A stretch of DNA of 64,000 nucleotides, taken from NCBI GenBank assembly GCA_023269435.1, contig JAHFTJ010000001.1, positions 45,329-109,328 on the forward strand, read 5' to 3'. A program made the translations under genes and the position numbers. The stretch is from Chlamydiota bacterium (GTDB lineage: Bacteria; Chlamydiota; Chlamydiia; Chlamydiales; 2-12-FULL-49-11). Shown piece by piece: positions 2,940 to 45,471 of this stretch (positions are counted from its first letter, which is position 1; every line of letters begins with the position of its first letter). Below the pieces are notes generated by a model. That model saw only the letters and a list, made by a program, of their open reading frames with translations. It searched no databases and was not told where the DNA came from.

Positions 2940-3048
2940 TAATATAATTATACAAAAAACAACTTAATTAAACAATTAAATATGATTTTCATAATTATTT
3001 GATGAGATTGGTGGGATTCTGATAAATTTTATTTTTAAAGATAGATTG

Positions 3049-3121
3049 TAGCGGCTACCGGACTTGAACCAGTGACCTGTGGATTATGATTCCATTGCTC
3101 TGCCAACTGAGCTAAGCCGCC
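3049..3121 (-). tRNA. tRNA with CAU anticodon (elongator Met or lysidine-type Ile2)
   Basis: Reverse strand reads GGCGGCTTAGCTCAGTTGGCAGAGCAATGGAATCATAATCCACAGGTCACTGGTTCAAGTCCGGTAGCCGCTA. It folds as a cloverleaf by hand, with anticodon loop ATCATAA. No encoded CCA. Confidence 0.85.
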
Positions 3122-3144
3122 TATATGGTAGTCGTGTAAAAAAT

Positions 3145-3217
3145 TAGCGGGAGACGGACTCGAACCGCCGACCTTTGGGTTATGAGCCCAACGAGCTTCC
3201 AACTGCTCCACCCCGCG
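3145..3217 (-). tRNA. Initiator tRNA-fMet (CAU)
   Basis: Reverse strand reads CGCGGGGTGGAGCAGTTGGAAGCTCGTTGGGCTCATAACCCAAAGGTCGGCGGTTCGAGTCCGTCTCCCGCTA. It has an unpaired 1:72 position and three G-C pairs closing the anticodon stem (GGGCTCATAACCC), and closely resembles E. coli tRNA-fMet. Confidence 0.9.
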
Positions 3218-3249
3218 ATAAATTAATACTCGATATTATATAGAATGTT

Positions 3250-4488: not shown

Positions 4489-6969
4489 TTATATTACTAA
4501 ATTAAGCAGCTTGTCTTGTACAAATATTATTTTTTTTATTCCGCCAGAAATATATTTTGTAATTTTTGGGTCTTTTTTTGCAAAATCCAAAACTTCTTGC
4601 TCAGTAGTTCCTTTCAAAAATTGACCTTTACTTCTTAATTTTCCCATAACTTGAAAAATAACAGTTACGCTATCTGTTGCAAAAGATTTATCATCATAGA
4701 TTGGAAACGGATAGTAAGCAATTGAACCTGTTCCACCAAGTAATTCCCAACACTCTTCTCCAAAATGCGGAGCAAATGGATAAATTAGTTGTATAAATTT
4801 TTTAAGAGATTCTATTGAGTAATTATCAATTAATGAAAAATCATTTAAAAATTCCATCATTTTGGCAATAGCGGTATTAAAAGATAAAGACTCTAAATCA
4901 CTTTCAACGTCTTTTATTAATTTATTAATTAAACTCCAACCATTGTCAGTATCTAATTCATTTATTTTATTTGAAATAACAAGTTCGTAGACTCTATTTA
5001 AAAATCTTTTACATCCACTTACAGACTCTGTTGACCAAATTTTTTCTTTGTCAAACGGCGCCATAAAAAGTACGTATAAACGTAATGAATCTGCTCCATA
5101 TTCTTCTATTATTTCATCTGGTGATACACCATTTAATTTAGATTTAGACATTTTCTCTATTAAAGAGATCACCTCAAGCCCCGTAGATTTTTGTATTAAT
5201 CTACCACCATCTTCTTCAATGTCATTTTCATGTACATACCCTCCCCCCTGAAGTTTATATGAACGGCTTGTTATCAATCCTTGGTTTCTCAATAACAAAA
5301 ATGGCTCTTTTGTTGATACATAACCAATATCGTATAAAACTTTATGCCAAAATCTAGCGTAGAGTAAATGGAGAACTGCATGCTCTACCCCACCTATATA
5401 TAGATCAACCGGCATCCAATACTTTTCGCTATTTGAACTCCAAGCATTATCTTCATTATGTGGATCACAAAAACGTAAATAATACCAACAAGATCCAGCC
5501 CACTGCGGCATTGTGTTAGTCTCTCTAAATGCTTTTTTACCTGTTTTTTGATCTATAATTTCAACCCAGTTATTAACTTTTTTTAACGGACTCTCTCCAT
5601 CTGGAGATGGTTTGTAATCTTCAATCATAGGAGGCGTTAATGGTAATTCATCAAGTTCCAACAATCTAATACTTCCATCTTCAAAACGTAATAATGGAAA
5701 TGGTTCACCCCAATAACGTTGACGAGAAAACAGCCAATCACGAAGCTTATAATTAGTTTTTTTCTCGCCACAACCTATTTTTTCCAAAAAAATTGCAACA
5801 TTCTCTTTAGCTTCATCAATTGTGCAATTACTTAAATCAACTTTGTCGTTTGTGCTATTAATGTAATTTCCTTGTTCATCTATAACAACCTTTATTGGAA
5901 TATTGTATATTTTACTAAATTCCAAATCTCGTTCGTCATGCGCTGGGACGGCCATTAACGCACCAGTTCCATATGTTGTTAATACATAATCTGCTACCCA
6001 AATTGGTAGTTTTTCATCATTTATTGGATTTATTAAATATGCCCCTGTAGCTACACCTGTTTTTATCTTACATAGGTCAGTCCGATCTAAATCGCTTTTA
6101 GAAATACATTGTCTTTGATAATTCTCTACTGCTTTTCGACACTGTTTCTTTGTAATTTTCATTAATAAATGATGTTCCGGAGATAATACTACATATGTAG
6201 CACCAAATAAAGTGTCAGGTCTTGTAGTATAACAAACTATCTCCTCGTCACTATCTTCTACTTTAAATTTAACATTAACACCTTGACTTTTTCCTATCCA
6301 ATTCCTTTGAAGTTTTTTTAAATGTTCTGGCCAATCTATTAAATCTAAATCGTCTAATAAATTTTGTGCATACTCCGTTATTTTTAGCATCCATTGACGG
6401 AGCGGCTTGCGTTCTATTGGAAATCCACCTTCAATTGATTTGCCATCCTCAACTTCTTCGTTAGCAAGTACAGTTCCAAGTTTTGGACAAAAATTCACAA
6501 CAACCTCTGCCTGATAAGCTAGTCCTTTTTCATACAGTTTTGTAAATATCCATTGCGTCCATTTATAATATTTTGCATCACTTGTTGCAAATTCACGAGA
6601 CCAATCGTAACTAAATCCTAATGATTTTAATTGTTCACGATAAGTGTTAATATTAATTTCTGTTGTTATTTGAGGGTGAGTTCCATTTCTTATAGCATAT
6701 TGCTCTGCAGGAAGACCAAAACTATCCCAACCCATTGGATGTAAAACATTAAATCCCTTCTGTCTTTTATAACGAGATATTACATCAGAGCCTGTGTAGC
6801 CAACAACATGACCAACATGTAACCCTGAGCCTGAAGGGTATGGAAACATATCTAATACATAATATTTTTGTTTATCAAAATCTATAGAACATTGAAATGT
6901 CTTATTATCTTCCCAAAATTTTTGCCATTTTTTTTCTATTTCAACATGATTATATTTTTTATATTTCAT
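4489..6969 (-). CDS. leuS: Leucyl-tRNA synthetase
   Basis: Class I HIGH (HVGHVVGY) and KMSKS (KMSKSKLNG) motifs with the full LeuS architecture. I prefer the ATG at 6969 (MKYKKYNHVEIEKKWQKFW) over the track's GTG at 6990. Confidence 0.97.
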   Translation of the reverse strand: MKYKKYNHVEIEKKWQKFWEDNKTFQCSIDFDKQKYYVLDMFPYPSGSGLHVGHVVGYTGSDVISRYKRQKGFNVLHPMGWDSFGLPAEQYAIRNGTHPQITTEININTYREQLKSLGFSYDWSREFATSDAKYYKWTQWIFTKLYEKGLAYQAEVVVNFCPKLGTVLANEEVEDGKSIEGGFPIERKPLRQWMLKITEYAQNLLDDLDLIDWPEHLKKLQRNWIGKSQGVNVKFKVEDSDEEIVCYTTRPDTLFGATYVVLSPEHHLLMKITKKQCRKAVENYQRQCISKSDLDRTDLCKIKTGVATGAYLINPINDEKLPIWVADYVLTTYGTGALMAVPAHDERDLEFSKIYNIPIKVVIDEQGNYINSTNDKVDLSNCTIDEAKENVAIFLEKIGCGEKKTNYKLRDWLFSRQRYWGEPFPLLRFEDGSIRLLELDELPLTPPMIEDYKPSPDGESPLKKVNNWVEIIDQKTGKKAFRETNTMPQWAGSCWYYLRFCDPHNEDNAWSSNSEKYWMPVDLYIGGVEHAVLHLLYARFWHKVLYDIGYVSTKEPFLLLRNQGLITSRSYKLQGGGYVHENDIEEDGGRLIQKSTGLEVISLIEKMSKSKLNGVSPDEIIEEYGADSLRLYVLFMAPFDKEKIWSTESVSGCKRFLNRVYELVISNKINELDTDNGWSLINKLIKDVESDLESLSFNTAIAKMMEFLNDFSLIDNYSIESLKKFIQLIYPFAPHFGEECWELLGGTGSIAYYPFPIYDDKSFATDSVTVIFQVMGKLRSKGQFLKGTTEQEVLDFAKKDPKITKYISGGIKKIIFVQDKLLNLVI

Positions 6970-7064
6970 TGTTCGCCTTGCTAAAAGCACATAAAAATTA
7001 ATCTTTACACAGTCTAAATACGTAAGTTATTTCTTTACGAGCTCTAATCTATAAAATTGTTGAA

Positions 7065-7238
7065 TATATACACAAAAAAACTCAAAAGTTGGCTTTTGAC
7101 TTCGCTGGCATCCTCATCTTTTAAGTCGTCTGCATCGCTCAACTTATTCAAGTTGAGCTGCTTCGACGTCGCTACGCTACTTCAAATATGTGGTGCCGGC
7201 TTTGTCAAATTCCCAACTTTGAATTCATTTGTGTATAT
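7065..7238 (+). repeat. GC-rich palindromic repeat element (MITE/RPE-like), copy A
   Basis: 174 bp. Termini are TATATACACAAA...TTTGTGTATAT, with subterminal CAAAAGTTGG / CCAACTTTG. A central perfect 9-bp hairpin, GCTCAACTT-ATTC-AAGTTGAGC, sits at 7137-7158. The two halves are imperfect inverted repeats of each other. By manual alignment, copy A matches the reverse complement of 27798-27972 with 3 substitutions and 1 single-base indel. Confidence 0.9.
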
Positions 7239-7315
7239 TATATTCCATTTATCCAACAAATTGCAATGAATAAAACCTTGTGTATAAAAATACTATTTAG
7301 TTATAATATTGAATT

Positions 7316-8770
7316 ATGACTAAAAATACATCTTGTGAATTATTTAATCTCTCATTGAGAAAAAATCATATAAATTTATCTGATTATGATTATGAAGCAG
7401 ATATAGTAAATAGATGTCTCCTAAGAGAGATAAATTCAACTGAATTAGCAGTATTAGAAGAAATATTATATAGTTCAATCAAGATTAGCATTAAAGAATT
7501 ATCTTCAAACTTGGATATCTCAATTGATTTATTATCTAATATTTTAGAAAAATTTTTACCAACATCTCTTTTTACATTAAATGATTATATTTTACATATA
7601 AACAAAGATAAACGTAAATATTTTGAAACTCAACTATCAAAATTTAAAGATGATTTCATCCCTGGAATGGATTTTTTGCAAAGTTTATTGAAGCATGTAA
7701 ATATACAACACCTCCCTTTTTGGTATCAAATACCACGTTCGTCAAACAATATTTTCAATTCATTAATAGAAAAATACTTACAAACTCCACAAATATATCA
7801 AAGATATTTTATAGAATTTACATCTGAAAATGATATAATAACTGAAATTGTCAAAGAAATTTACAAGACAAATGAGTTGTGCATCTCAGCAAAAGAGATT
7901 CAAGATAAATTTTCTTTAAGTAAAGAATCGTTTGAAGAAATCGCTATTTATCTCGAATATAGCTTAATAGCCGTTGTGTATTATAAATACATTGACGGTT
8001 CTTTTGAGGAAATGATATCCCCATTCCAAGAATGGCGTGATTATTTAATGTTAATAAGTGAAACAATAGCTACACCTTCTATACAACAACAAAATGAAGT
8101 TGTCGCCTACAGTAGTAAAGAGTATGCATTTATAGATGGCATGACATGTATATTAAATTTATGCGAGCAAGAAAATATATCAGTTACATTTGATTTACAT
8201 TCCGATGGATGGATCGCTGACGAACAATCACTAAATATTATAACAAAATCAATACAAACATCAAAAGATAGTGTAGTTTATATAAATAAAATGATTAATA
8301 AACTTATAACAATTGGTATTGTAGTAATAGAAGAAGCGTCGCTGAAAGCTACGCAAATATCTATTGAATGGTTGAACAAGTCTATAGAAAATAGGGCTCA
8401 CATCATATTTAGACATCAACATAATTTCTTATCGATAGAAAAACATTATCCATTAAGTACAAAAAGAACTGTAATGGAAATAGAAAAAAGCATGCATAGT
8501 GTAGTTGGTTTAGAATGGGTCTACTTCGATGATTTTATTAAAAATTCTTCAATAATACTGAATGATTCAGACAAAATATCGCTAAGGCGTTGTGGTAAAT
8601 TATTTGCATATATGGCGCCACAGCATGACGATTTACAAAAACAATTCATAAAATACACCGTTCTTGAGTGGTTTTTCGAATCTGGGATAGTACAAATAGG
8701 GACTCATAATGATAAACAATGTTTTAAATTAACGTCGTTAGGATCTAATTTATTTAAATCTACTAAATAA
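7316..8770 (+). CDS. Hypothetical protein (484 aa, no motif recognised)
   Basis: Long uninterrupted ORF on the expected strand. Soluble and predicted helical, with no recognisable catalytic motif. Its 3' end overlaps the convergent SET gene by 8 nt. Confidence 0.6.
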   Translation: MTKNTSCELFNLSLRKNHINLSDYDYEADIVNRCLLREINSTELAVLEEILYSSIKISIKELSSNLDISIDLLSNILEKFLPTSLFTLNDYILHINKDKRKYFETQLSKFKDDFIPGMDFLQSLLKHVNIQHLPFWYQIPRSSNNIFNSLIEKYLQTPQIYQRYFIEFTSENDIITEIVKEIYKTNELCISAKEIQDKFSLSKESFEEIAIYLEYSLIAVVYYKYIDGSFEEMISPFQEWRDYLMLISETIATPSIQQQNEVVAYSSKEYAFIDGMTCILNLCEQENISVTFDLHSDGWIADEQSLNIITKSIQTSKDSVVYINKMINKLITIGIVVIEEASLKATQISIEWLNKSIENRAHIIFRHQHNFLSIEKHYPLSTKRTVMEIEKSMHSVVGLEWVYFDDFIKNSSIILNDSDKISLRRCGKLFAYMAPQHDDLQKQFIKYTVLEWFFESGIVQIGTHNDKQCFKLTSLGSNLFKSTK

Positions 8771-9353: not shown

Positions 9354-10775
9354 CTATAAAATTCCAATAATATACCACCAAAGCCCGCCTATTCCTACCC
9401 ATATTATTATATTTACAAGACTAATTATAAATCCAATTCTCCACCAATCTTTAGGCAGAATATATCCAGATCCAAAATAAATTGGAGCTGGACCAGATCC
9501 ATATGGTGTCAATGAACCAAATAGACTGCTAAAAAATCCCAAAGTGAGAGCTGCTAATGTTGGAGGCGTACCAATTGCAATTGATAAGATTAAAAATGGG
9601 GCATACAACGATGTTATATGCGCTATGTTGCTAGCAAAAAAATAATGTAGATAATAATAAAGTATTCCTATTATTGTAAAACCTAATTGCCAGCTCATCC
9701 CCTTCACATGTGTTTCTATATGACCACTAAACCAAGCCATCAATCCAAATTTATTCATAGTAAAGGCGATTGTTATCAATGCAGCAAACCAAATTAAAGT
9801 ATCCCATGCGCCGCTTTCTTTTAAAACATCATCAAACGACAATACATTAGTAAACAATAAAATACACAAACCAAGCAGCGCTGTAATAGTTGCATCTATT
9901 TTAACATATGGAGCTAGTATCCATAACAGTATCATCAAAACAAACGTAAATATCATTATCAATTCTTTAGTAGAAATTTTACCCATTTCTTTCAGTTTGG
10001 ATATAGCAAATTTTTTAGCTTCTGGCGTATGCTTTATCTCTGGCGGATAAATTTTATAAATAATATATGGAATCAGTATAAGAGAGGATAAACCTGGTAC
10101 GATAGCTGCCAAAGCCCATAAGCTCCACGTAATATTTACCGAGCTATTTTTAGCTAAACTCTGCACTATTGGATTGCCTGCCATCGCCGTTAAAAACATT
10201 GCACTAGTAACAGCCGAACATTGAAAAATAGTTTTAATTAAATATGAACCTATTTTTCTTGGATTGTTTTCTGGAGTACTGTCAAACGCTTTTGATAAGG
10301 CGACTATAATTGGATATATTATTCCACCTGATCTTGCTGCCACACTAGGAATCGAACTCGCCAATATAAAATCTGTGAATACAATTCCATATGCAATTCC
10401 TAACGTATTTTTTCCAATAACAATCATTAAATTATATGCAATTCTTAAACCAAGACCTGTCTTTATAAAACCCCTTGCTATAAAAAATGCAAAAACAATC
10501 AACCAAATAGTAGGATTGGAAAATCCTGCAAAAGCCTCTCCAAACGACAATATATCTGTGAGCACCAAAATCATCAAGCTTGATAAAGTAATAACCCCAA
10601 TTGATATCGGTTTTAATATCATTCCAATAAGAACATATAAAAATATAGCAAAAGTTTTCCACGCATCTGATTCAACGCCGCGTGGCGCTGGCATCATCCA
10701 CACAAATATAGCCATAACTACACATGCAGCCAATTTTTTATATTTACTTGGTATACGCATATATAATTTTAACAT
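9354..10775 (-). CDS. DASS-family anion/dicarboxylate transporter (SodiT1/YbhI-like)
   Basis: 473 aa polytopic membrane protein with duplicated hairpin-type motifs (SSIPSVAARSGGIIYPI and SLTPYGSGPAPIYFGSGY) typical of DASS/2-oxoglutarate-malate translocator homologues. Confidence 0.85.
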   Translation of the reverse strand: MLKLYMRIPSKYKKLAACVVMAIFVWMMPAPRGVESDAWKTFAIFLYVLIGMILKPISIGVITLSSLMILVLTDILSFGEAFAGFSNPTIWLIVFAFFIARGFIKTGLGLRIAYNLMIVIGKNTLGIAYGIVFTDFILASSIPSVAARSGGIIYPIIVALSKAFDSTPENNPRKIGSYLIKTIFQCSAVTSAMFLTAMAGNPIVQSLAKNSSVNITWSLWALAAIVPGLSSLILIPYIIYKIYPPEIKHTPEAKKFAISKLKEMGKISTKELIMIFTFVLMILLWILAPYVKIDATITALLGLCILLFTNVLSFDDVLKESGAWDTLIWFAALITIAFTMNKFGLMAWFSGHIETHVKGMSWQLGFTIIGILYYYLHYFFASNIAHITSLYAPFLILSIAIGTPPTLAALTLGFFSSLFGSLTPYGSGPAPIYFGSGYILPKDWWRIGFIISLVNIIIWVGIGGLWWYIIGIL

Positions 10776-10834: not shown

Positions 10835-12619
10835 CTAAACTTCATCGTACAACTCTATCTCATTTTTTTTAATTTTATAGCTGTCATCACTACTCTCTAC
10901 TGAATCAAAATTAACTACTATTAAATTAACTACAGGTTTTTTGTCTTGTTGTTTATTTTCATCACTCTTTTGCATGCCACCACTTGCAAGGCTATTATTT
11001 GATTCATTTTTTTGCAAGACACGAATGCCAGTTCTTTTAAATGTTGTTTTACTATTCAAATGATCGCTATTATTTTTTTGTTCGCTACTAGAACTATTAC
11101 TAATAAAATTAACATTATTCCAGTGTTCGCCAGCTTGCTTAGTTGTAAGCATATTTTTTCGATATTTTTTTTTCCTTCTATCTATTGGCATTTCATATCC
11201 TTTAATATATGCAATAGTTGTGTAAAGATTATTAGCAGAAACAAACGGTTGAGGTTTATCACGCAGTTGTTCAAATAGCCTATTTCTTTCATTAATCTCT
11301 TTTTTAATCGCTTGAAATGTTACTATTAAAGAATGTACATGTATTAAAATCTTACGTTGTTCATACAATCCTTTTGCTTGACTAATTAATTTTTCTTCTT
11401 TTGTGGCTTGATTTGCTAAAAAATCATTTAATTTTGAAAAGATCATTGAAACACAAAAAATTGCAGCACTGCCTATTTTAGCATTTGCGTTTAATGTTCC
11501 GTCATTTACATTTAAACGTTCGAATAATTTTGAAATTATTGCTGCAGATTCCATTAAACACTGAATGCCAGACCTAATATAGATTTGGTCATTGCGAGAT
11601 CTTTTCCCGGCAGACTTTCTTTCTAATGCTAATACTTTTTTGACAATTTTAAACTTATTTTCAAGTGTGTTATATGAAATTATTAAGGAAGCTATTGTGC
11701 TTTCTAAATCAATGTCTTCTGGATTACACTCTTCCAATACATCACCTAAAGATTTCATGCGTTGCATAATTATACTATATTCTGAAGTTATAGAATCTCC
11801 CAAAAAATTTATATCTATTGTAAAATTTTTCCACCACCATCCACACAATTTAGAATGTTTGTAAAATTTTATACCGTTTTCATTTGAATTATTTATTTGA
11901 AGTTCAATATCTTGATCTTGTAACATTTCATTTTCATCATATCCACATTCTTTAATTGAGTCCATTTTTACGAATTTAACTATGTTTGAAAATCTCGTAG
12001 ACGATATTTTTTGAGACTGTTCCATCATAATTTCTTTGTTATCATCATTATGCATGTATTTATTTTCTAATTTTAATTGTTGATAAGCTTTTAAAGCTTG
12101 TAGAGACGAATTGATATGTTCTATCAATAATCCGTTTCCTGCGATTCTTTCGAATCGTTCCGTTTCTTTAATCTGTTTTACTCTTCTATGCCAAATAATA
12201 TCTCTAATTTTTCCAAAAACAAAACTCCCAACCAAACAACCAAGTCCAATCCAATTATTATTAGCATTTTCAGTTGTATTTTCAGTTGTATTTTTAGTAG
12301 CTTCAATAGTATTTATAACTAATGCAGTTACACCTATTATTGTATCTAATATTGTAGACCCCCACAATAGAATAACTTGTTGTTTACAATATTTATTCGC
12401 ATCTTTATCAATAATATCCAATGCAACTTTATAAAGTTTTTGCATATCATCTAAATTTCTTTCGACCGTCTTTATTGGTATTTGAACATCTGCTCCACTA
12501 GCTAATGCTTTTCCAGCGTCATTAATAGCTATTAATGCTGAATCCAATGACGATTCAAATTGTTTATAAATATTACTGTTACCAGACGGTTTTAAGCTTG
12601 ATTGTATTAACGGAAACAT
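10835..12619 (-). CDS. Large hypothetical membrane/coiled-coil protein, candidate Inc-like protein
   Basis: 594 aa. Paired hydrophobic segments (ILLWGSTILDTIIGVTALVINTI ... WIGLGCLVGSFVFGKI) are separated by a short TENTTENTTEN loop. A second hydrophobic patch is AKIGSAAIFCVSMIF. Long helical regions and a low-complexity Ser/Asn/Lys tail. Confidence 0.5.
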   Translation of the reverse strand: MFPLIQSSLKPSGNSNIYKQFESSLDSALIAINDAGKALASGADVQIPIKTVERNLDDMQKLYKVALDIIDKDANKYCKQQVILLWGSTILDTIIGVTALVINTIEATKNTTENTTENANNNWIGLGCLVGSFVFGKIRDIIWHRRVKQIKETERFERIAGNGLLIEHINSSLQALKAYQQLKLENKYMHNDDNKEIMMEQSQKISSTRFSNIVKFVKMDSIKECGYDENEMLQDQDIELQINNSNENGIKFYKHSKLCGWWWKNFTIDINFLGDSITSEYSIIMQRMKSLGDVLEECNPEDIDLESTIASLIISYNTLENKFKIVKKVLALERKSAGKRSRNDQIYIRSGIQCLMESAAIISKLFERLNVNDGTLNANAKIGSAAIFCVSMIFSKLNDFLANQATKEEKLISQAKGLYEQRKILIHVHSLIVTFQAIKKEINERNRLFEQLRDKPQPFVSANNLYTTIAYIKGYEMPIDRRKKKYRKNMLTTKQAGEHWNNVNFISNSSSSEQKNNSDHLNSKTTFKRTGIRVLQKNESNNSLASGGMQKSDENKQQDKKPVVNLIVVNFDSVESSDDSYKIKKNEIELYDEV

Positions 12620-27797: not shown

Positions 27798-27972
27798 ATA
27801 TACACAAATGAATTCAAAAGTTGGGAATTTGGCAAAGCCGGCACCACATATTTGAAGTAGCGTAGCGACGTCGAAGCAGCTCAACTTGAGTAAGTTGAGC
27901 GATGCAGACGACTTAAAAGATGATGATGCCAGCGAAGTCAAAAGCCAACTTTTGAGTTTTTTTGTGTATATA
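27798..27972 (-). repeat. GC-rich palindromic repeat element (MITE/RPE-like), copy B, inverted relative to copy A
   Basis: 175 bp. Its reverse complement aligns end to end with 7065-7238. It lies between the convergent 3' ends of the S12 hydrolase and M16 peptidase genes. Confidence 0.9.
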
Positions 27973-28002
27973 ACTAGCTGACTTTGATAAGTCAGCTAGT
28001 TA
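27971..28002. terminator. Perfect hairpin abutting repeat copy B (candidate bidirectional terminator)
   Basis: TAACTAGCTGACTT-tgat-AAGTCAGCTAGTTA is a 14-bp perfect stem between convergent genes. Confidence 0.55.
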
Positions 28003-40920: not shown

Positions 40921-41898
40921 ATGTATAAATTATTATTTAGTTCATTTTTCTGTTTTTCTCTTTTAAACGCTAACTCTTCAAAAGATGTTGATAAATATTC
41001 ATCTATTAGCCCAATGTTTACCGGTCCAATATTAGCGCCATCTGTAGCGACAGTAGGTCCAGGTCAGTTTTTTATAGAACCGTACTTATGGTTTAATGAT
41101 AGTATAGGCTACTACAACAATCACTGGCATCTTCATAGATCAAAAGAGGTTAGCGCCAGTATACAACAAATTATTTATACTTATTTTGGAATAAATTCGT
41201 ACATGGATTTGATATTAACACCACAGTTTACATTTAATTACGATAAATATGAGCATGAGGGGTATGCAGATTCTTGGAGAGTTAGTGATTTTCAGATTTG
41301 TTTGGATTTTCAAATTTTAAAACAGAAAAAAGATCTATTCACTCCTAATATTAAATTTAATATTACAGAGACACTTCCAATTGGAAGTTACCAACATTTG
41401 AACCCTGCAAAATTAACTAGTGACATTAGTGGCGGTGGCAGTTTTGCAACCAACATTGGTTTAGTAGTAGGCAAAAAATGGCATATATATAGAGATAGTT
41501 TTCTATCGGCAAGAACGAACGCATCGTGCTCTCTATTTACACCAGTAAGAGTTCATGGTTTAAATGCATACGGTGGCGACTCAACAACTTCCGGAACGGT
41601 TCATCCAGGAACAACCTTTAATTTCTTATTATCCGGAGAATATAATTTTTTAAAAAATTGGGCATTAGCATTGGATATATCAAATACTTGGGCGTTAAAA
41701 ACAAAATTCAATGGAATAACAGCTGATTCAATGACAAACACAGGTTCTTATATACTCAGTTTAGCTCCAGGTATTGAATATAATTACAGTGAAAATATTG
41801 GTATTCTTGGTGGTGTATGGTTTTCTGTTATTGGAAAAAATACACCTGAATTCATGAACGGAGTAATTATACTAACTTGGGGTGGATCGTTTGAATAA
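40921..41898 (+). CDS. Putative outer-membrane beta-barrel protein/porin, paralogue 1
   Basis: 325 aa with signal peptide MYKLLFSSFFCFSLLNA. Alternating amphipathic beta-strand pattern, a Gly-rich loop (SGGGSF) and an aromatic-rich C-terminal strand. Confidence 0.6.
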   Translation: MYKLLFSSFFCFSLLNANSSKDVDKYSSISPMFTGPILAPSVATVGPGQFFIEPYLWFNDSIGYYNNHWHLHRSKEVSASIQQIIYTYFGINSYMDLILTPQFTFNYDKYEHEGYADSWRVSDFQICLDFQILKQKKDLFTPNIKFNITETLPIGSYQHLNPAKLTSDISGGGSFATNIGLVVGKKWHIYRDSFLSARTNASCSLFTPVRVHGLNAYGGDSTTSGTVHPGTTFNFLLSGEYNFLKNWALALDISNTWALKTKFNGITADSMTNTGSYILSLAPGIEYNYSENIGILGGVWFSVIGKNTPEFMNGVIILTWGGSFE

Positions 41899-41949: not shown

Positions 41950-42939
41950 TTGTTATTAAATGGTGTTAATTTGCATAAATCTATATTTATATTTTTTTTC
42001 TGCATTGTTTATTTAAATGGTAAAAATACAGATAAAATAACTTTACATCATCCATGGTTTACTGGTTCTATATTAACTCCAAGCGCAAACATTGTAGCTA
42101 AAAATCAATTTAAAATTAAACCACACATATACAACAACAGCAGTATATGTTACTTAAACAATTATTGGCATATCAACAGATATGCAGACGCAAAAAGCAA
42201 TGTAAATTTACAATTATTAACACACATCTCTATGTCTGATTATATGGACATGATTATAACACCACAATTTTTTTTCAATCATGAAGGCAGCGTTAACAGT
42301 TTGAGAGTTGGCGATTTTACTATTGGTCTTGAGTTTCAATTATTAAAAGAAAAAATAAACACATTAACTTCTGCAATTAAATTTAACATTAGTGAAACGT
42401 TACCAATTGGAAGTTATCAATATTTAAGTGTAAAAAACATAGGAACTGATGCTAGCGGCGGCGGTAGTTTTAGCACTAATTTTGGAATAACACTAAATAA
42501 AATATGGAATATTAATAATATTAATTACTTGTCATTGACAACTAACCTAAATTGTAATCTATTCACACCTGTTAATGTCCATTATATTAACGTATATGGA
42601 GGAGATTTTACAACTAAAGGTATAGTCTATCCTGGATCAGTATTTAATATACTTGCCTCAGTTGAGTACAATCTTACTAAAAATTGGGCGATAGCGCTCG
42701 ATGGTGTAAATACAATTGCATTAAAAACTAAATTTATCGGGACTACTATAGCTCCAGTAGGGAATAAAAATCTCTCTTACATACTAAGCTTCGCACCAGC
42801 CATTGAATACAACTACAGTGCAAATATCGGAATAATTGGCGGAATTTGGTTTTATGCTACAGGTATAAATGCGTTCGATTTTTTAAACGCTGTAATAGCT
42901 GTTAATTGGTCTATTCCACATTCTGCACATGCGCATTAA
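41950..42939 (+). CDS. Putative outer-membrane beta-barrel protein/porin, paralogue 2
   Basis: 329 aa, co-linear with 40921-41898 (WFTGSILTPSA..., ETLPIGSYQYL, SGGGSFSTNFG, NWAIALDGVNT). Apparent TTG start. Confidence 0.6.
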   Translation: MLLNGVNLHKSIFIFFFCIVYLNGKNTDKITLHHPWFTGSILTPSANIVAKNQFKIKPHIYNNSSICYLNNYWHINRYADAKSNVNLQLLTHISMSDYMDMIITPQFFFNHEGSVNSLRVGDFTIGLEFQLLKEKINTLTSAIKFNISETLPIGSYQYLSVKNIGTDASGGGSFSTNFGITLNKIWNINNINYLSLTTNLNCNLFTPVNVHYINVYGGDFTTKGIVYPGSVFNILASVEYNLTKNWAIALDGVNTIALKTKFIGTTIAPVGNKNLSYILSFAPAIEYNYSANIGIIGGIWFYATGINAFDFLNAVIAVNWSIPHSAHAH

Positions 42940-43987: not shown

Positions 43988-44030
43988 TTTTTGAAGTAGC
44001 GTAGCGACGTCAAAAACCAACCTTCGCTAA
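43988..44030 (+). repeat. Degenerate, internally deleted remnant of the palindromic repeat element
   Basis: TTTGAAGTAGCGTAGCGACGTC is identical to 27851-27872 of copy B. It then jumps to AAAAACCAACCTTCGC, which resembles AAAAGCCAACTTTTGAG near the copy B terminus. Same orientation as copy B. Confidence 0.6.
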
Positions 44031-44748: not shown

Positions 44749-45471
44749 ATGCATCAAATAAGAGAAAATCAACAAATTGGAAATGGAAATATACGTTGGT
44801 CGATAAATGAAAATACATCAAAAATTACAATTGTCGCGCTTTATATTATATCTGTAATAGGACTCTCTATGACGTGCTCACTGAGCATGGCGATTATAAT
44901 ACCATTAATAATAGGTGTGTCATTGTATGAAATATTTTTCCGTTCAACAGGAGATCGACCACAACACAATCGCAATCATTATAATATGCAATCACCAAGA
45001 AGACGTATGAGCGATCCAATTATATATTTAAATACACATGTTTCTAGAAATTACAATTATCCAATAATTCCTGACGTTCTTGATGGCATTAACCGAAATC
45101 TTAGGTTTTACCATCACCGTCAACATCAACAAACAATCGTTGCAGATCAACAACGAGCTCGCGTTGGAAATGTTGAGAACGACAGACAATTTAGTGGGGC
45201 TCCAAGCACTCTTGGTGGTATTCAAGACCAAAATCTTATATTTTATCCTCAACTTCAACAACCAGTTGAGAACGACAGACAATTTAGTGGGACTCCAAGC
45301 GCTCTTGGCGGTATTCGAGACCAAAATCTTATGTTTTCTCCTCAACTTCAACAAGCAACCGTTACAAATCAACAACGAGCTCGTGTTGGAGATGGTAATA
45401 GTTTTAGTGGTGATCCAGTTCAAAATGATGAACAAACAAACAAAAGGGCAACTGTTGGACAAAAGCAATAA
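44749..45471 (+). CDS. Inc-like membrane protein with Gln-rich tandem-repeat C-terminus
   Basis: 240 aa. Bilobed hydrophobic segment ITIVALYIISVIGLSMTCSLSMAIIIPLIIGVSLY. The C-terminus has two 31-aa repeats (VENDRQFSG.PS.LGGI.DQNL.F.PQLQQ) bracketed by QQRARVG motifs. Confidence 0.55.
   Translation: MHQIRENQQIGNGNIRWSINENTSKITIVALYIISVIGLSMTCSLSMAIIIPLIIGVSLYEIFFRSTGDRPQHNRNHYNMQSPRRRMSDPIIYLNTHVSRNYNYPIIPDVLDGINRNLRFYHHRQHQQTIVADQQRARVGNVENDRQFSGAPSTLGGIQDQNLIFYPQLQQPVENDRQFSGTPSALGGIRDQNLMFSPQLQQATVTNQQRARVGDGNSFSGDPVQNDEQTNKRATVGQKQ
45172..45357 (+). repeat. 93-bp tandem repeat x2 within 44749-45471
   Basis: 45172-45264 and 45265-45357 align with only a few substitutions. A flanking direct repeat, atcaacaacgagctcg.gttgga, occurs at about 45146 and about 45368. 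Confidence 0.9.

Follow-up and report, generated by a model that had tools for sequence, protein, structure and literature searches.

A palindromic element of 174 bp upstream of leuS in a Chlamydiota genome is a member of a previously undescribed family that is present in several chlamydial genomes, and we read it, with a probability of about 0.8, as a MITE of the IS630 type, mobilised in trans and inserted at TA sites by cut-and-paste. By this route, a DDE transposase of the IS630/Tc1-mariner family, made elsewhere, would bind both terminal repeats through its N-terminal helix-turn-helix domains, excise the unit by double-strand cuts and insert it at a TA dinucleotide, with duplication of the TA. 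A matching transposase would then be expected somewhere in the genome from which the analysed DNA comes, or in its recent past, and the two 97.7%-identical copies of the element would be recent insertions, with the relic at 43990 an old one. A mobile or formerly mobile palindromic MITE, with the IS630/Tc1 type as a candidate, had been proposed in an earlier note, and this proposal is strengthened by the presence of the family elsewhere and by an end that the element shares with a transposase gene in a related genome. The window referred to below is the whole stretch of DNA that was analysed (64 kb), in which the element and its parts are located as follows.

7065-7238, plus strand: candidate MITE, copy 1, the block common to copy 2 (family covariance model 178 bits forward, 54 reverse)
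7069-7235 (TACAC...GTGTA), plus strand: copy 1, element proper under the IS630 model, with TA at 7067-7068 and 7236-7237
7069-7092, plus strand: left terminal inverted repeat of copy 1, TACACAAAAAAACTCAAAAGTTGG; helix 1, homologous to the IS630-type end at locus L016
7213-7235, plus strand: right terminal inverted repeat of copy 1, CCAACTTTGAATTCATTTGTGTA
7137-7158, plus strand: central perfect hairpin of copy 1, with a 9-bp stem and a 4-nt loop
27798-27972, minus strand: candidate MITE, copy 2, element proper 27801-27968, with TA at 27799-27800 and 27969-27970
43990-44024, plus strand: relic of a third copy, two arm segments joined, with the centre and both termini gone

Copy 1 and copy 2, which lie in opposite orientations, are 97.7% identical (174/175 nt) and differ by three substitutions and one 1-nt indel, and their similarity breaks off abruptly at the inverted ends, beyond which the flanks are unrelated. 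Copy 1 begins TATATACACAAA and ends TTTGTGTATAT, and the perfect 11-bp end ATATACACAAA occurs at four places in the 64 kb (0.14 expected by chance), which are exactly the four element ends. The terminal inverted repeats are perfect over 11 bp and near-perfect over 24 bp, and the wider 45-nt arms of copy 1 are 73% complementary. In overall anatomy, the element is a unit of ~167-174 bp with terminal inverted repeats of ~24-29 bp (TACACAARTGAAYTCAAAAGTTGG) and an interior that is a near-complete palindrome; the copies, at 174 and 175 bp, fall within the MITE size range (less than about 300 bp) and have no transposase coding capacity. The whole length folds at -65/-67 kcal/mol on the two strands, with z about -10 and none of 200 dinucleotide shuffles folding as well, and the GC content of the element is 40%, compared with 21-25% in its immediate flanks and 30.6% across the 64-kb window. 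Thus, the GC-rich block, the inverted-repeat ends, the single long stem-loop, the central 9-bp hairpin and the near-identical recurrence at 27798-27972 that the earlier note had described were all recovered, and the remnant it had placed near 43988 corresponds to the relic at 43990-44024.

The relic combines a 24/25-nt match to one inner arm segment (43990-44014), including an exact 19-mer of which none would be expected by chance, with a 19/22-nt match to a segment of the other arm (44003-44024). Judged from this alignment, the 35-bp relic is an internally deleted fragment without ends, the centre of which is missing as if deleted at a GTC microhomology; attempts to extend the alignment beyond 35 nt were unconvincing. 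With the family covariance model, no additional full copy is detected in the 64-kb window, so the window contains two full copies and one relic, a dispersed set of the kind by which a MITE is recognised.

The observation of just two full copies, both within the window, could also be accommodated by a segmental duplication or an assembly artefact in which nothing has moved, and a larger segmental duplication had been named earlier as part of the case that would count against mobility. This explanation is refuted by the flanks, which show no relation to each other as far as the inverted ends; in addition, homologous elements occupy unrelated loci of other genomes, and the same junctions are present in two independent assemblies of the same organism, with Logan and ENA contigs that extend into the element from either side. 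The breaks of these two short-read assemblies in both copies indicate a repeat that is longer than k and present in at least two copies, not a high copy number; the idea that such breaks reveal many copies was considered and rejected, since two copies longer than k suffice.

The host is assigned to the Chlamydiota from its LeuS relatives and from hallmark genes, in agreement with the chlamydia-like genome that had been suspected. The best relatives of LeuS share 62-75% identity with it, and nearly all of those with a name are labelled Chlamydiae, Chlamydiia, Parachlamydiales, Simkaniaceae or Rhabdochlamydiaceae; among the typical genes encoded in the window are those for a Hc2-like histone, TLC ATP/ADP translocases and a SET-domain protein. 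Copy 1 fills half of a 346-bp gap between leuS (4489-6969, minus strand) and a lineage-specific gene for a 484-aa protein (7316-8770, plus strand). A GTG at 6990 was considered as the leuS start and rejected in favour of the ATG at 6969. Three related chlamydial contigs have an SLC12/AA_permease gene (720-729 aa) immediately upstream of leuS and next to a homologue of the 484-aa gene, at the following positions.

L008:2380-4542, L010:1618-3798 and L011:7803-9992: permease genes upstream of leuS in relatives

The corresponding interval of the window (6970-7315) has no permease gene, and the element occupies the 346-bp gap that remains. A comparison of empty and filled sites, of the kind proposed earlier, was made at leuS against these three relatives, and because a permease gene stands there in each of them, it offers no orthologous empty site. 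The loss of the permease gene also implies that leuS must have gained a new promoter here. No homologue of the element was found in the leuS loci of these relatives (46 kb).

Copy 2 begins 8 nt past the stop codon of a beta-lactamase-family gene (25904-27790) and lies between convergent genes, in the order beta-lactamase-family gene, copy 2, a 13-bp hairpin and an M16 peptidase gene. This perfect 13-bp hairpin (27972-28001, AACTAGCTGACTT tgat AAGTCAGCTAGTT), placed right after copy 2, is probably the original bidirectional terminator, and it was missed by the terminator scan because it has no T-run. Promoter and terminator scans otherwise gave matches at chance level. As had been stated earlier, the window has no transposase: Pfam scans of all ORFs of at least 90 aa revealed no transposase or integrase in the 64 kb, nor did a transposase emerge there from tblastn with that of L016.

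Relatives of the element in other genomes were reached through its one open frame, treated as a peptide. A word-index protein search with this peptide gave no match. Two small ORFs, P0127 and P0129, emerged from an exhaustive phmmer search (1.84 billion representatives); their ends (MNSKVGF... and ...FEFICV/SFVYM) are the translated terminal repeats of the element. A profile search then yielded ten small ORFs that are translated elements. These ten ORFs derive from MAGs labelled Verrucomicrobia/Verrucomicrobiota (NCBI), one Rhabdochlamydiaceae, and JGI and ENA metagenomes. The DNA of four of the ORFs holds full-length elements of 172-178 bp, at loci L013/L014, L017/L018, L016 and L015 (two copies), which are 62-88% identical among themselves and lie on host contigs of 47-56% GC. 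The window copies are 84-85.5% identical to the elements of L013 and L017, 80% identical to that of L016 and 64-68% identical to the two L015 copies. The stem of the central hairpin is identical in window copy 1, L013, L017 and one L015 copy (L015b), and the other L015 copy (L015a) has a different perfect hairpin instead. More than one copy within a genome is also seen elsewhere, with two copies in 15.5 kb of L015 and two copy-bearing contigs in GCA_018968815.1.

The gene orders at L016 (acpP-fabG-fabD-fabH / recR-bamA; ssb-pepA) and at L017 (nrdR-dksA-lspA) are ones that we take to be those of Chlamydia trachomatis. On this basis, the MAGs labelled Verrucomicrobia are treated here as chlamydial, an assignment that serves as a lead. 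A Pfam scan of hypothetical proteins from L013, L016 and L017 gave nothing that helped to place them. A search of related Chlamydiota had been suggested in the earlier note, and related elements do exist in other chlamydial MAGs. DNA scans of genome, metagenome and viral contig collections with the 19-mer GAAGTAGCGTAGCGACGTC gave only chance matches in GC-rich, unrelated contigs; this 19-mer is specific to the lineage of the window, and a central 34-mer is conserved across the family. The central 34-mer had no match in viral contigs, and blastn of the element gave nothing from plasmids and only 21-nt chance matches from phages. No earlier description of a MITE family in Chlamydiota was found in the literature searched, in agreement with the earlier note, which knew of no described family of this sort in the group.

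Two further features of the related loci concern the shape of the elements and their contact with genes. At L016:16006-16061 there is a short derivative of the family, of ~75 bp, in which a left end (TA followed by TACACAAGCGAACTC) leads into the left inner arm in reverse complement, and the right end is degenerate. At L013:9992-10004 and L015:6659-6671, a flanking gene ends 13 nt inside the element, with the TGA in the terminal repeat (ACAAATGAAC) as its stop, so the insertions have remodelled the C-termini of the encoded proteins.

The link to a transposase comes from L016, where an intact gene for a 347-aa transposase lies 220 bp downstream of the element (10040-10212). Its product has Pfam DDE_3 (3e-35) and HTH_33/23/29 domains, and matches the NCBIfam model for IS630 family transposases, NF033545, at 3.4e-61 and 207 bits (cutoff 100). 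The last codons and the stop of this gene lie inside a terminal repeat, CCAATTTTTGAGTTTACTTGTGTATACAT (11468-11496), whose complementarity to the element's left end is 90% over 29 nt and whose identity to the element's right end is 83%; judged by sequence comparison, a match of 26/29 nt within about 1.5 kb cannot be chance. A search for a transposase with matching termini had been advised earlier, and the terminal-repeat match to a predicted IS630-family IS is found in a related genome, that of L016, rather than in the window's own. The sequence that the element and the IS share is confined to the outer 27-29 bp.

Three full-length variants of the L016 transposase, nearly identical to one another, and one fragment are spread over at least five contigs, and the C-terminus, ...APNF, is conserved in all of the full-length variants, so the L016-type IS is multicopy and recently active. 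No separate left repeat was found for the L016 transposase gene, and in this one IS copy (L016:10040-11496) the sole available left end is the complete 173-bp palindromic element. Of the contigs with transposase entries P0138, P0139 and P0140, which measure 229 kb, 1,418 bp and 14 kb, that of P0139 is nearly as long as the span of 1,455 bp between the element's left end and the right repeat at L016, a hint that the IS has the palindromic module as its own left end.

The sequences around the ends are compatible with an IS630-type process. Elements of the IS630 family target TA almost exclusively, with duplication of the dinucleotide, as described for ISY100, the transposase of which is the sole protein required and binds the terminal repeats via two N-terminal HTH motifs (PMC2170065). 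All five intact copies of the family, and the right end of the IS, read TA-TACAC...GTGTA-TA, and the older L015 copies are ambiguous. The TA flanks of the intact copies are not separable, as a duplication, from a conserved TATACAC terminus, and the paired assemblies L013/L014 and L017/L018 are both filled. The statement in the earlier note that a TA duplication is possible and not resolvable therefore stands, since TA is present on both sides of the element and could equally belong to such a terminus.

The folding and covariation analyses that had been recommended earlier reveal a strict conservation of the palindrome. Seven copies were aligned without reference to structure, and RNAalifold predicts 63 pairs from this alignment, of which 31 have changed on both sides with pairing kept; 96.6% of the cells are paired. 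None of 500 column shuffles reached the observed pairing and covariation, and sliding the partners by 1-3 columns lowered pairing to 34-45%. The 439 cells comprise 422 Watson-Crick, 2 G-T, 7 A-C and 8 other combinations. The finding that G-T is no commoner than its mirror image, A-C, points to a constraint that acts on DNA, or on both strands equally, and not on an RNA made from one strand. Relative to L017, 20 of 23 substitutions in the window copy run from GC to AT, and at five places a G:C pair has been replaced by A:T through changes on both arms; the element has been adapting to an AT-rich genome while its palindrome was kept. The young copies of one genome differ mostly by changes that break pairs or lie at unpaired positions, a pattern that fits neutral decay after insertion and selection among the lineages that spread. 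The family also has invariant unpaired positions and a block of 10-14 nt found in the right arm only, and its covariance model scores 163-205 bits forward versus 48-80 bits in reverse; this polarity argues that simple homogenisation of one arm by the other is not the explanation for the palindrome.

Such conservation could in principle reflect a structured RNA (a small RNA, cis-regulatory hairpin, terminator or RNase III site) that is kept for a host function, with the repeats being copies of its gene, an alternative that had also been raised earlier. The fold is very stable, far beyond that of shuffles, covariation is strong (31/63 pairs, 0/500 shuffles), the conserved unpaired positions give the element a polarity, the two copies occupy a 3' untranslated position (copy 2) and a 5' region (copy 1), and the Correia and ERIC MITEs are known to act at the RNA level (PMC2229807). 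We nevertheless consider this explanation unlikely, since wobble pairs are not tolerated (2 G-T vs 7 A-C) and both strands are constrained alike, the copies occur in both orientations and in varied contexts that include overlaps with gene ends, the ends of the element match the end of an IS630-type transposase gene, and most differences between young copies of one genome break a pair or fall at unpaired positions. In addition, there is no Rfam match and promoter and terminator matches are at chance level: Rfam 15 identifies only tRNAs over the window, with the best local matches at 13.6-21 bits versus gathering thresholds of 50-144.

A different account of the hairpin is that the family moves by a single-strand, hairpin-dependent route (a REP/RAYT system, an IS200/IS605-like tyrosine transposase or another system), so that the association with an IS630-type gene at L016 is a coincidence of nested insertion. 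This would make use of the conserved, whole-length, DNA-type palindrome, which IS630 chemistry does not need, and would also suit an IS at L016 that has no separate left end. We regard it as very unlikely, because the 29-nt match between the element's end and the 3' end of the transposase gene includes the stop codon, coincides with the conserved ...APNF terminus and cannot, on the sequence comparison above, be chance; because no Y1 or HUH transposase is present in any locus examined, the Pfam lists of the window and the related loci containing no Y1_Tnp; and because a unit of 170 bp with 24-bp terminal repeats is unlike REPs of 20-40 bp (PMC3733652).

An IS630-type MITE moved in trans remains the preferred reading, with one feature that it leaves over: the chemistry of IS630 does not explain the conservation of the inner helices. 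Cleavage by Tc1/IS630 transposases uses no hairpin (PMC2170065). Since these helices are not shared with the IS, are not needed by Tc1/IS630 chemistry and yet are kept by strict Watson-Crick compensation across chlamydial genomes of 30-56% GC, a structure-dependent step is proposed, in which the family would be more than an IS630-type MITE and its spread would depend on a whole-length DNA hairpin or cruciform. This is a tentative extension, which we consider possible and rather doubtful. If it were true, the step might be cruciform extrusion that draws the ends of an element too short to bend close to each other, or it might involve a single-strand intermediate; alternatively, a hairpin that works in either orientation could be selected by the host. 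It would also imply horizontal spread of the element among obligate intracellular bacteria.

The open frame through which the relatives were found raises the further alternative that the element is a small protein gene or an in-frame coding module of the type seen in Rickettsia palindromic elements (RPE), with a frame of 54-58 codons that is translated. The earlier note had remarked on an open frame and on a length that is a multiple of three. One frame is indeed open through both window copies, and gene callers have called 54-aa ORFs across the element in several MAGs; the multiple-of-three length is not a family property, since copy 2 has 175 bp. The open frame differs between genomes, the MNSKVGF frame being interrupted by three stops in copy 1 and two in copy 2, and sequence differences are spread evenly over the codon positions (7/7/11, 6/6/6 and 17/14/17), from which it follows that the element is not coding and that its open frame is incidental. 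The element has no Pfam match, and no host protein among 15 billion contains the peptide as an internal, in-frame insert, so the RPE-like idea put forward earlier was not upheld. The matches from the peptide searches are stand-alone element ORFs, two unrelated, internally repetitive proteins (P0125 and P0126) and a weak, unrelated one (P0128); P0135 reads through one element into its flank. It is true that in L013 and L015 a neighbouring gene takes its final codons and its stop from the element, and these overlaps are limited to the last 13 nt of the two flanking genes. Taken with the codon-position data, these observations make a coding function highly improbable.

Among known systems, the closest precedent is RUP of Streptococcus pneumoniae, which like the present element is short and non-coding, has terminal inverted repeats and a terminal TA, and forms a long stem-loop (PMC2229807). 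RUP is often adjacent to IS elements, and its link to IS630-Spn1 was drawn from repeat similarity and TA targets, the same kind of evidence as that used here (PMC2229807). RUP differs in its length of 107 bp, its 9-bp perfect repeats and its Gram-positive host, compared with ~170 bp, repeats of ~24-29 bp and a host in the Chlamydiota; the two have no detectable sequence relation, and the interior palindrome of the chlamydial element is kept by compensatory change across 30-56% GC. The Correia/NEMIS elements of Neisseria are similar in having ~107-155 bp, repeats of ~24-26 bp, TA ends and positions near gene starts and ends, and they give rise to long hairpin transcripts (PMC2229807). They have no sequence similarity to the element and no identified transposase, whereas the element has a matching IS630-type gene end. 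The RNA-level roles of Correia elements include RNase III cleavage and IHF binding.

In eukaryotes, Stowaway-type MITEs have a TA target and the potential to form a whole-length hairpin, and are derived from or cross-mobilised by transposases of the Tc1/mariner/IS630 superfamily (PMC3814204). The present element differs in that its host is bacterial and the transposase is a bacterial one of the IS630 family, with HTH_23/29/33 and DDE_3 domains. The RPEs of Rickettsia, at 105-146 bp, resemble the element in being palindromic, in having one open frame and in residing in an obligate intracellular host (PMC2229807), and differ in being defined by in-frame insertion into protein genes, of which there is no internal case here, and in having no sequence similarity. 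REP/BIME sequences are likewise extragenic palindromes, and occur in many copies. REPs are 20-40 bp long, with GTAG/CGTC heads and a link to Y1 transposases (PMC3733652, PMC2817692), in contrast to a 174-bp element with TACAC ends.

The family would be of interest as a marker of recent transposition in a very AT-rich lineage with a small genome. Mobile DNA is usually considered scarce in the Chlamydiota, a phylum of obligate intracellular bacteria whose genomes are reduced. Expansions of IS elements are on record for a small number of chlamydial lineages, namely Rhabdochlamydia and a hydra symbiont (PMC9723776, PMC13229535). A family identity of 84-85% across genomes that are 20 GC points apart suggests either exchange of mobile DNA or long persistence under constraint within the Chlamydiota. 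The sites at which the element lies could alter gene ends and promoters, and short-read assemblies break at the element, which calls for its masking or annotation. Chlamydial genetics could make use of a native transposase of the IS630 type whose ends are defined, and the strict conservation of the palindrome provides a clean test case for why MITEs are hairpins.

Other repeats and a neighbouring island were observed in the same material. The gene for the Hc2-like, histone H1-like protein (19768-20253, minus strand) contains 15-bp tandem repeats at 19815-20175, and its Pfam HC2 match (1.2e-08) is below the gathering score. An ORF at 44749-45471, which encodes 240 aa and has no Pfam match, contains a 93-bp tandem duplication (92% identical) with a flanking 53-nt repeat at 45120-45394. 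Just downstream of a TLC ATP/ADP translocase gene are two adjacent paralogous genes (40921-41898 and 41950-42939) that encode proteins of 325 and 329 aa without a Pfam family and share a 126-nt stretch of 74% identity. Two tandem tRNA-Met (CAT) genes lie 23 nt apart at 3048-3218 on the minus strand. Finally, in one of the relatives used for the leuS comparison (chlamydial MAG GCA_964552055.1), the region directly downstream of leuS-waaA (L011:14046-21946) contains a phage-integrase gene, DUF927, a YhcG-like nuclease and an MmeI-type restriction-modification gene, and has the appearance of an integrated island, mobile or defensive, which the window lacks.
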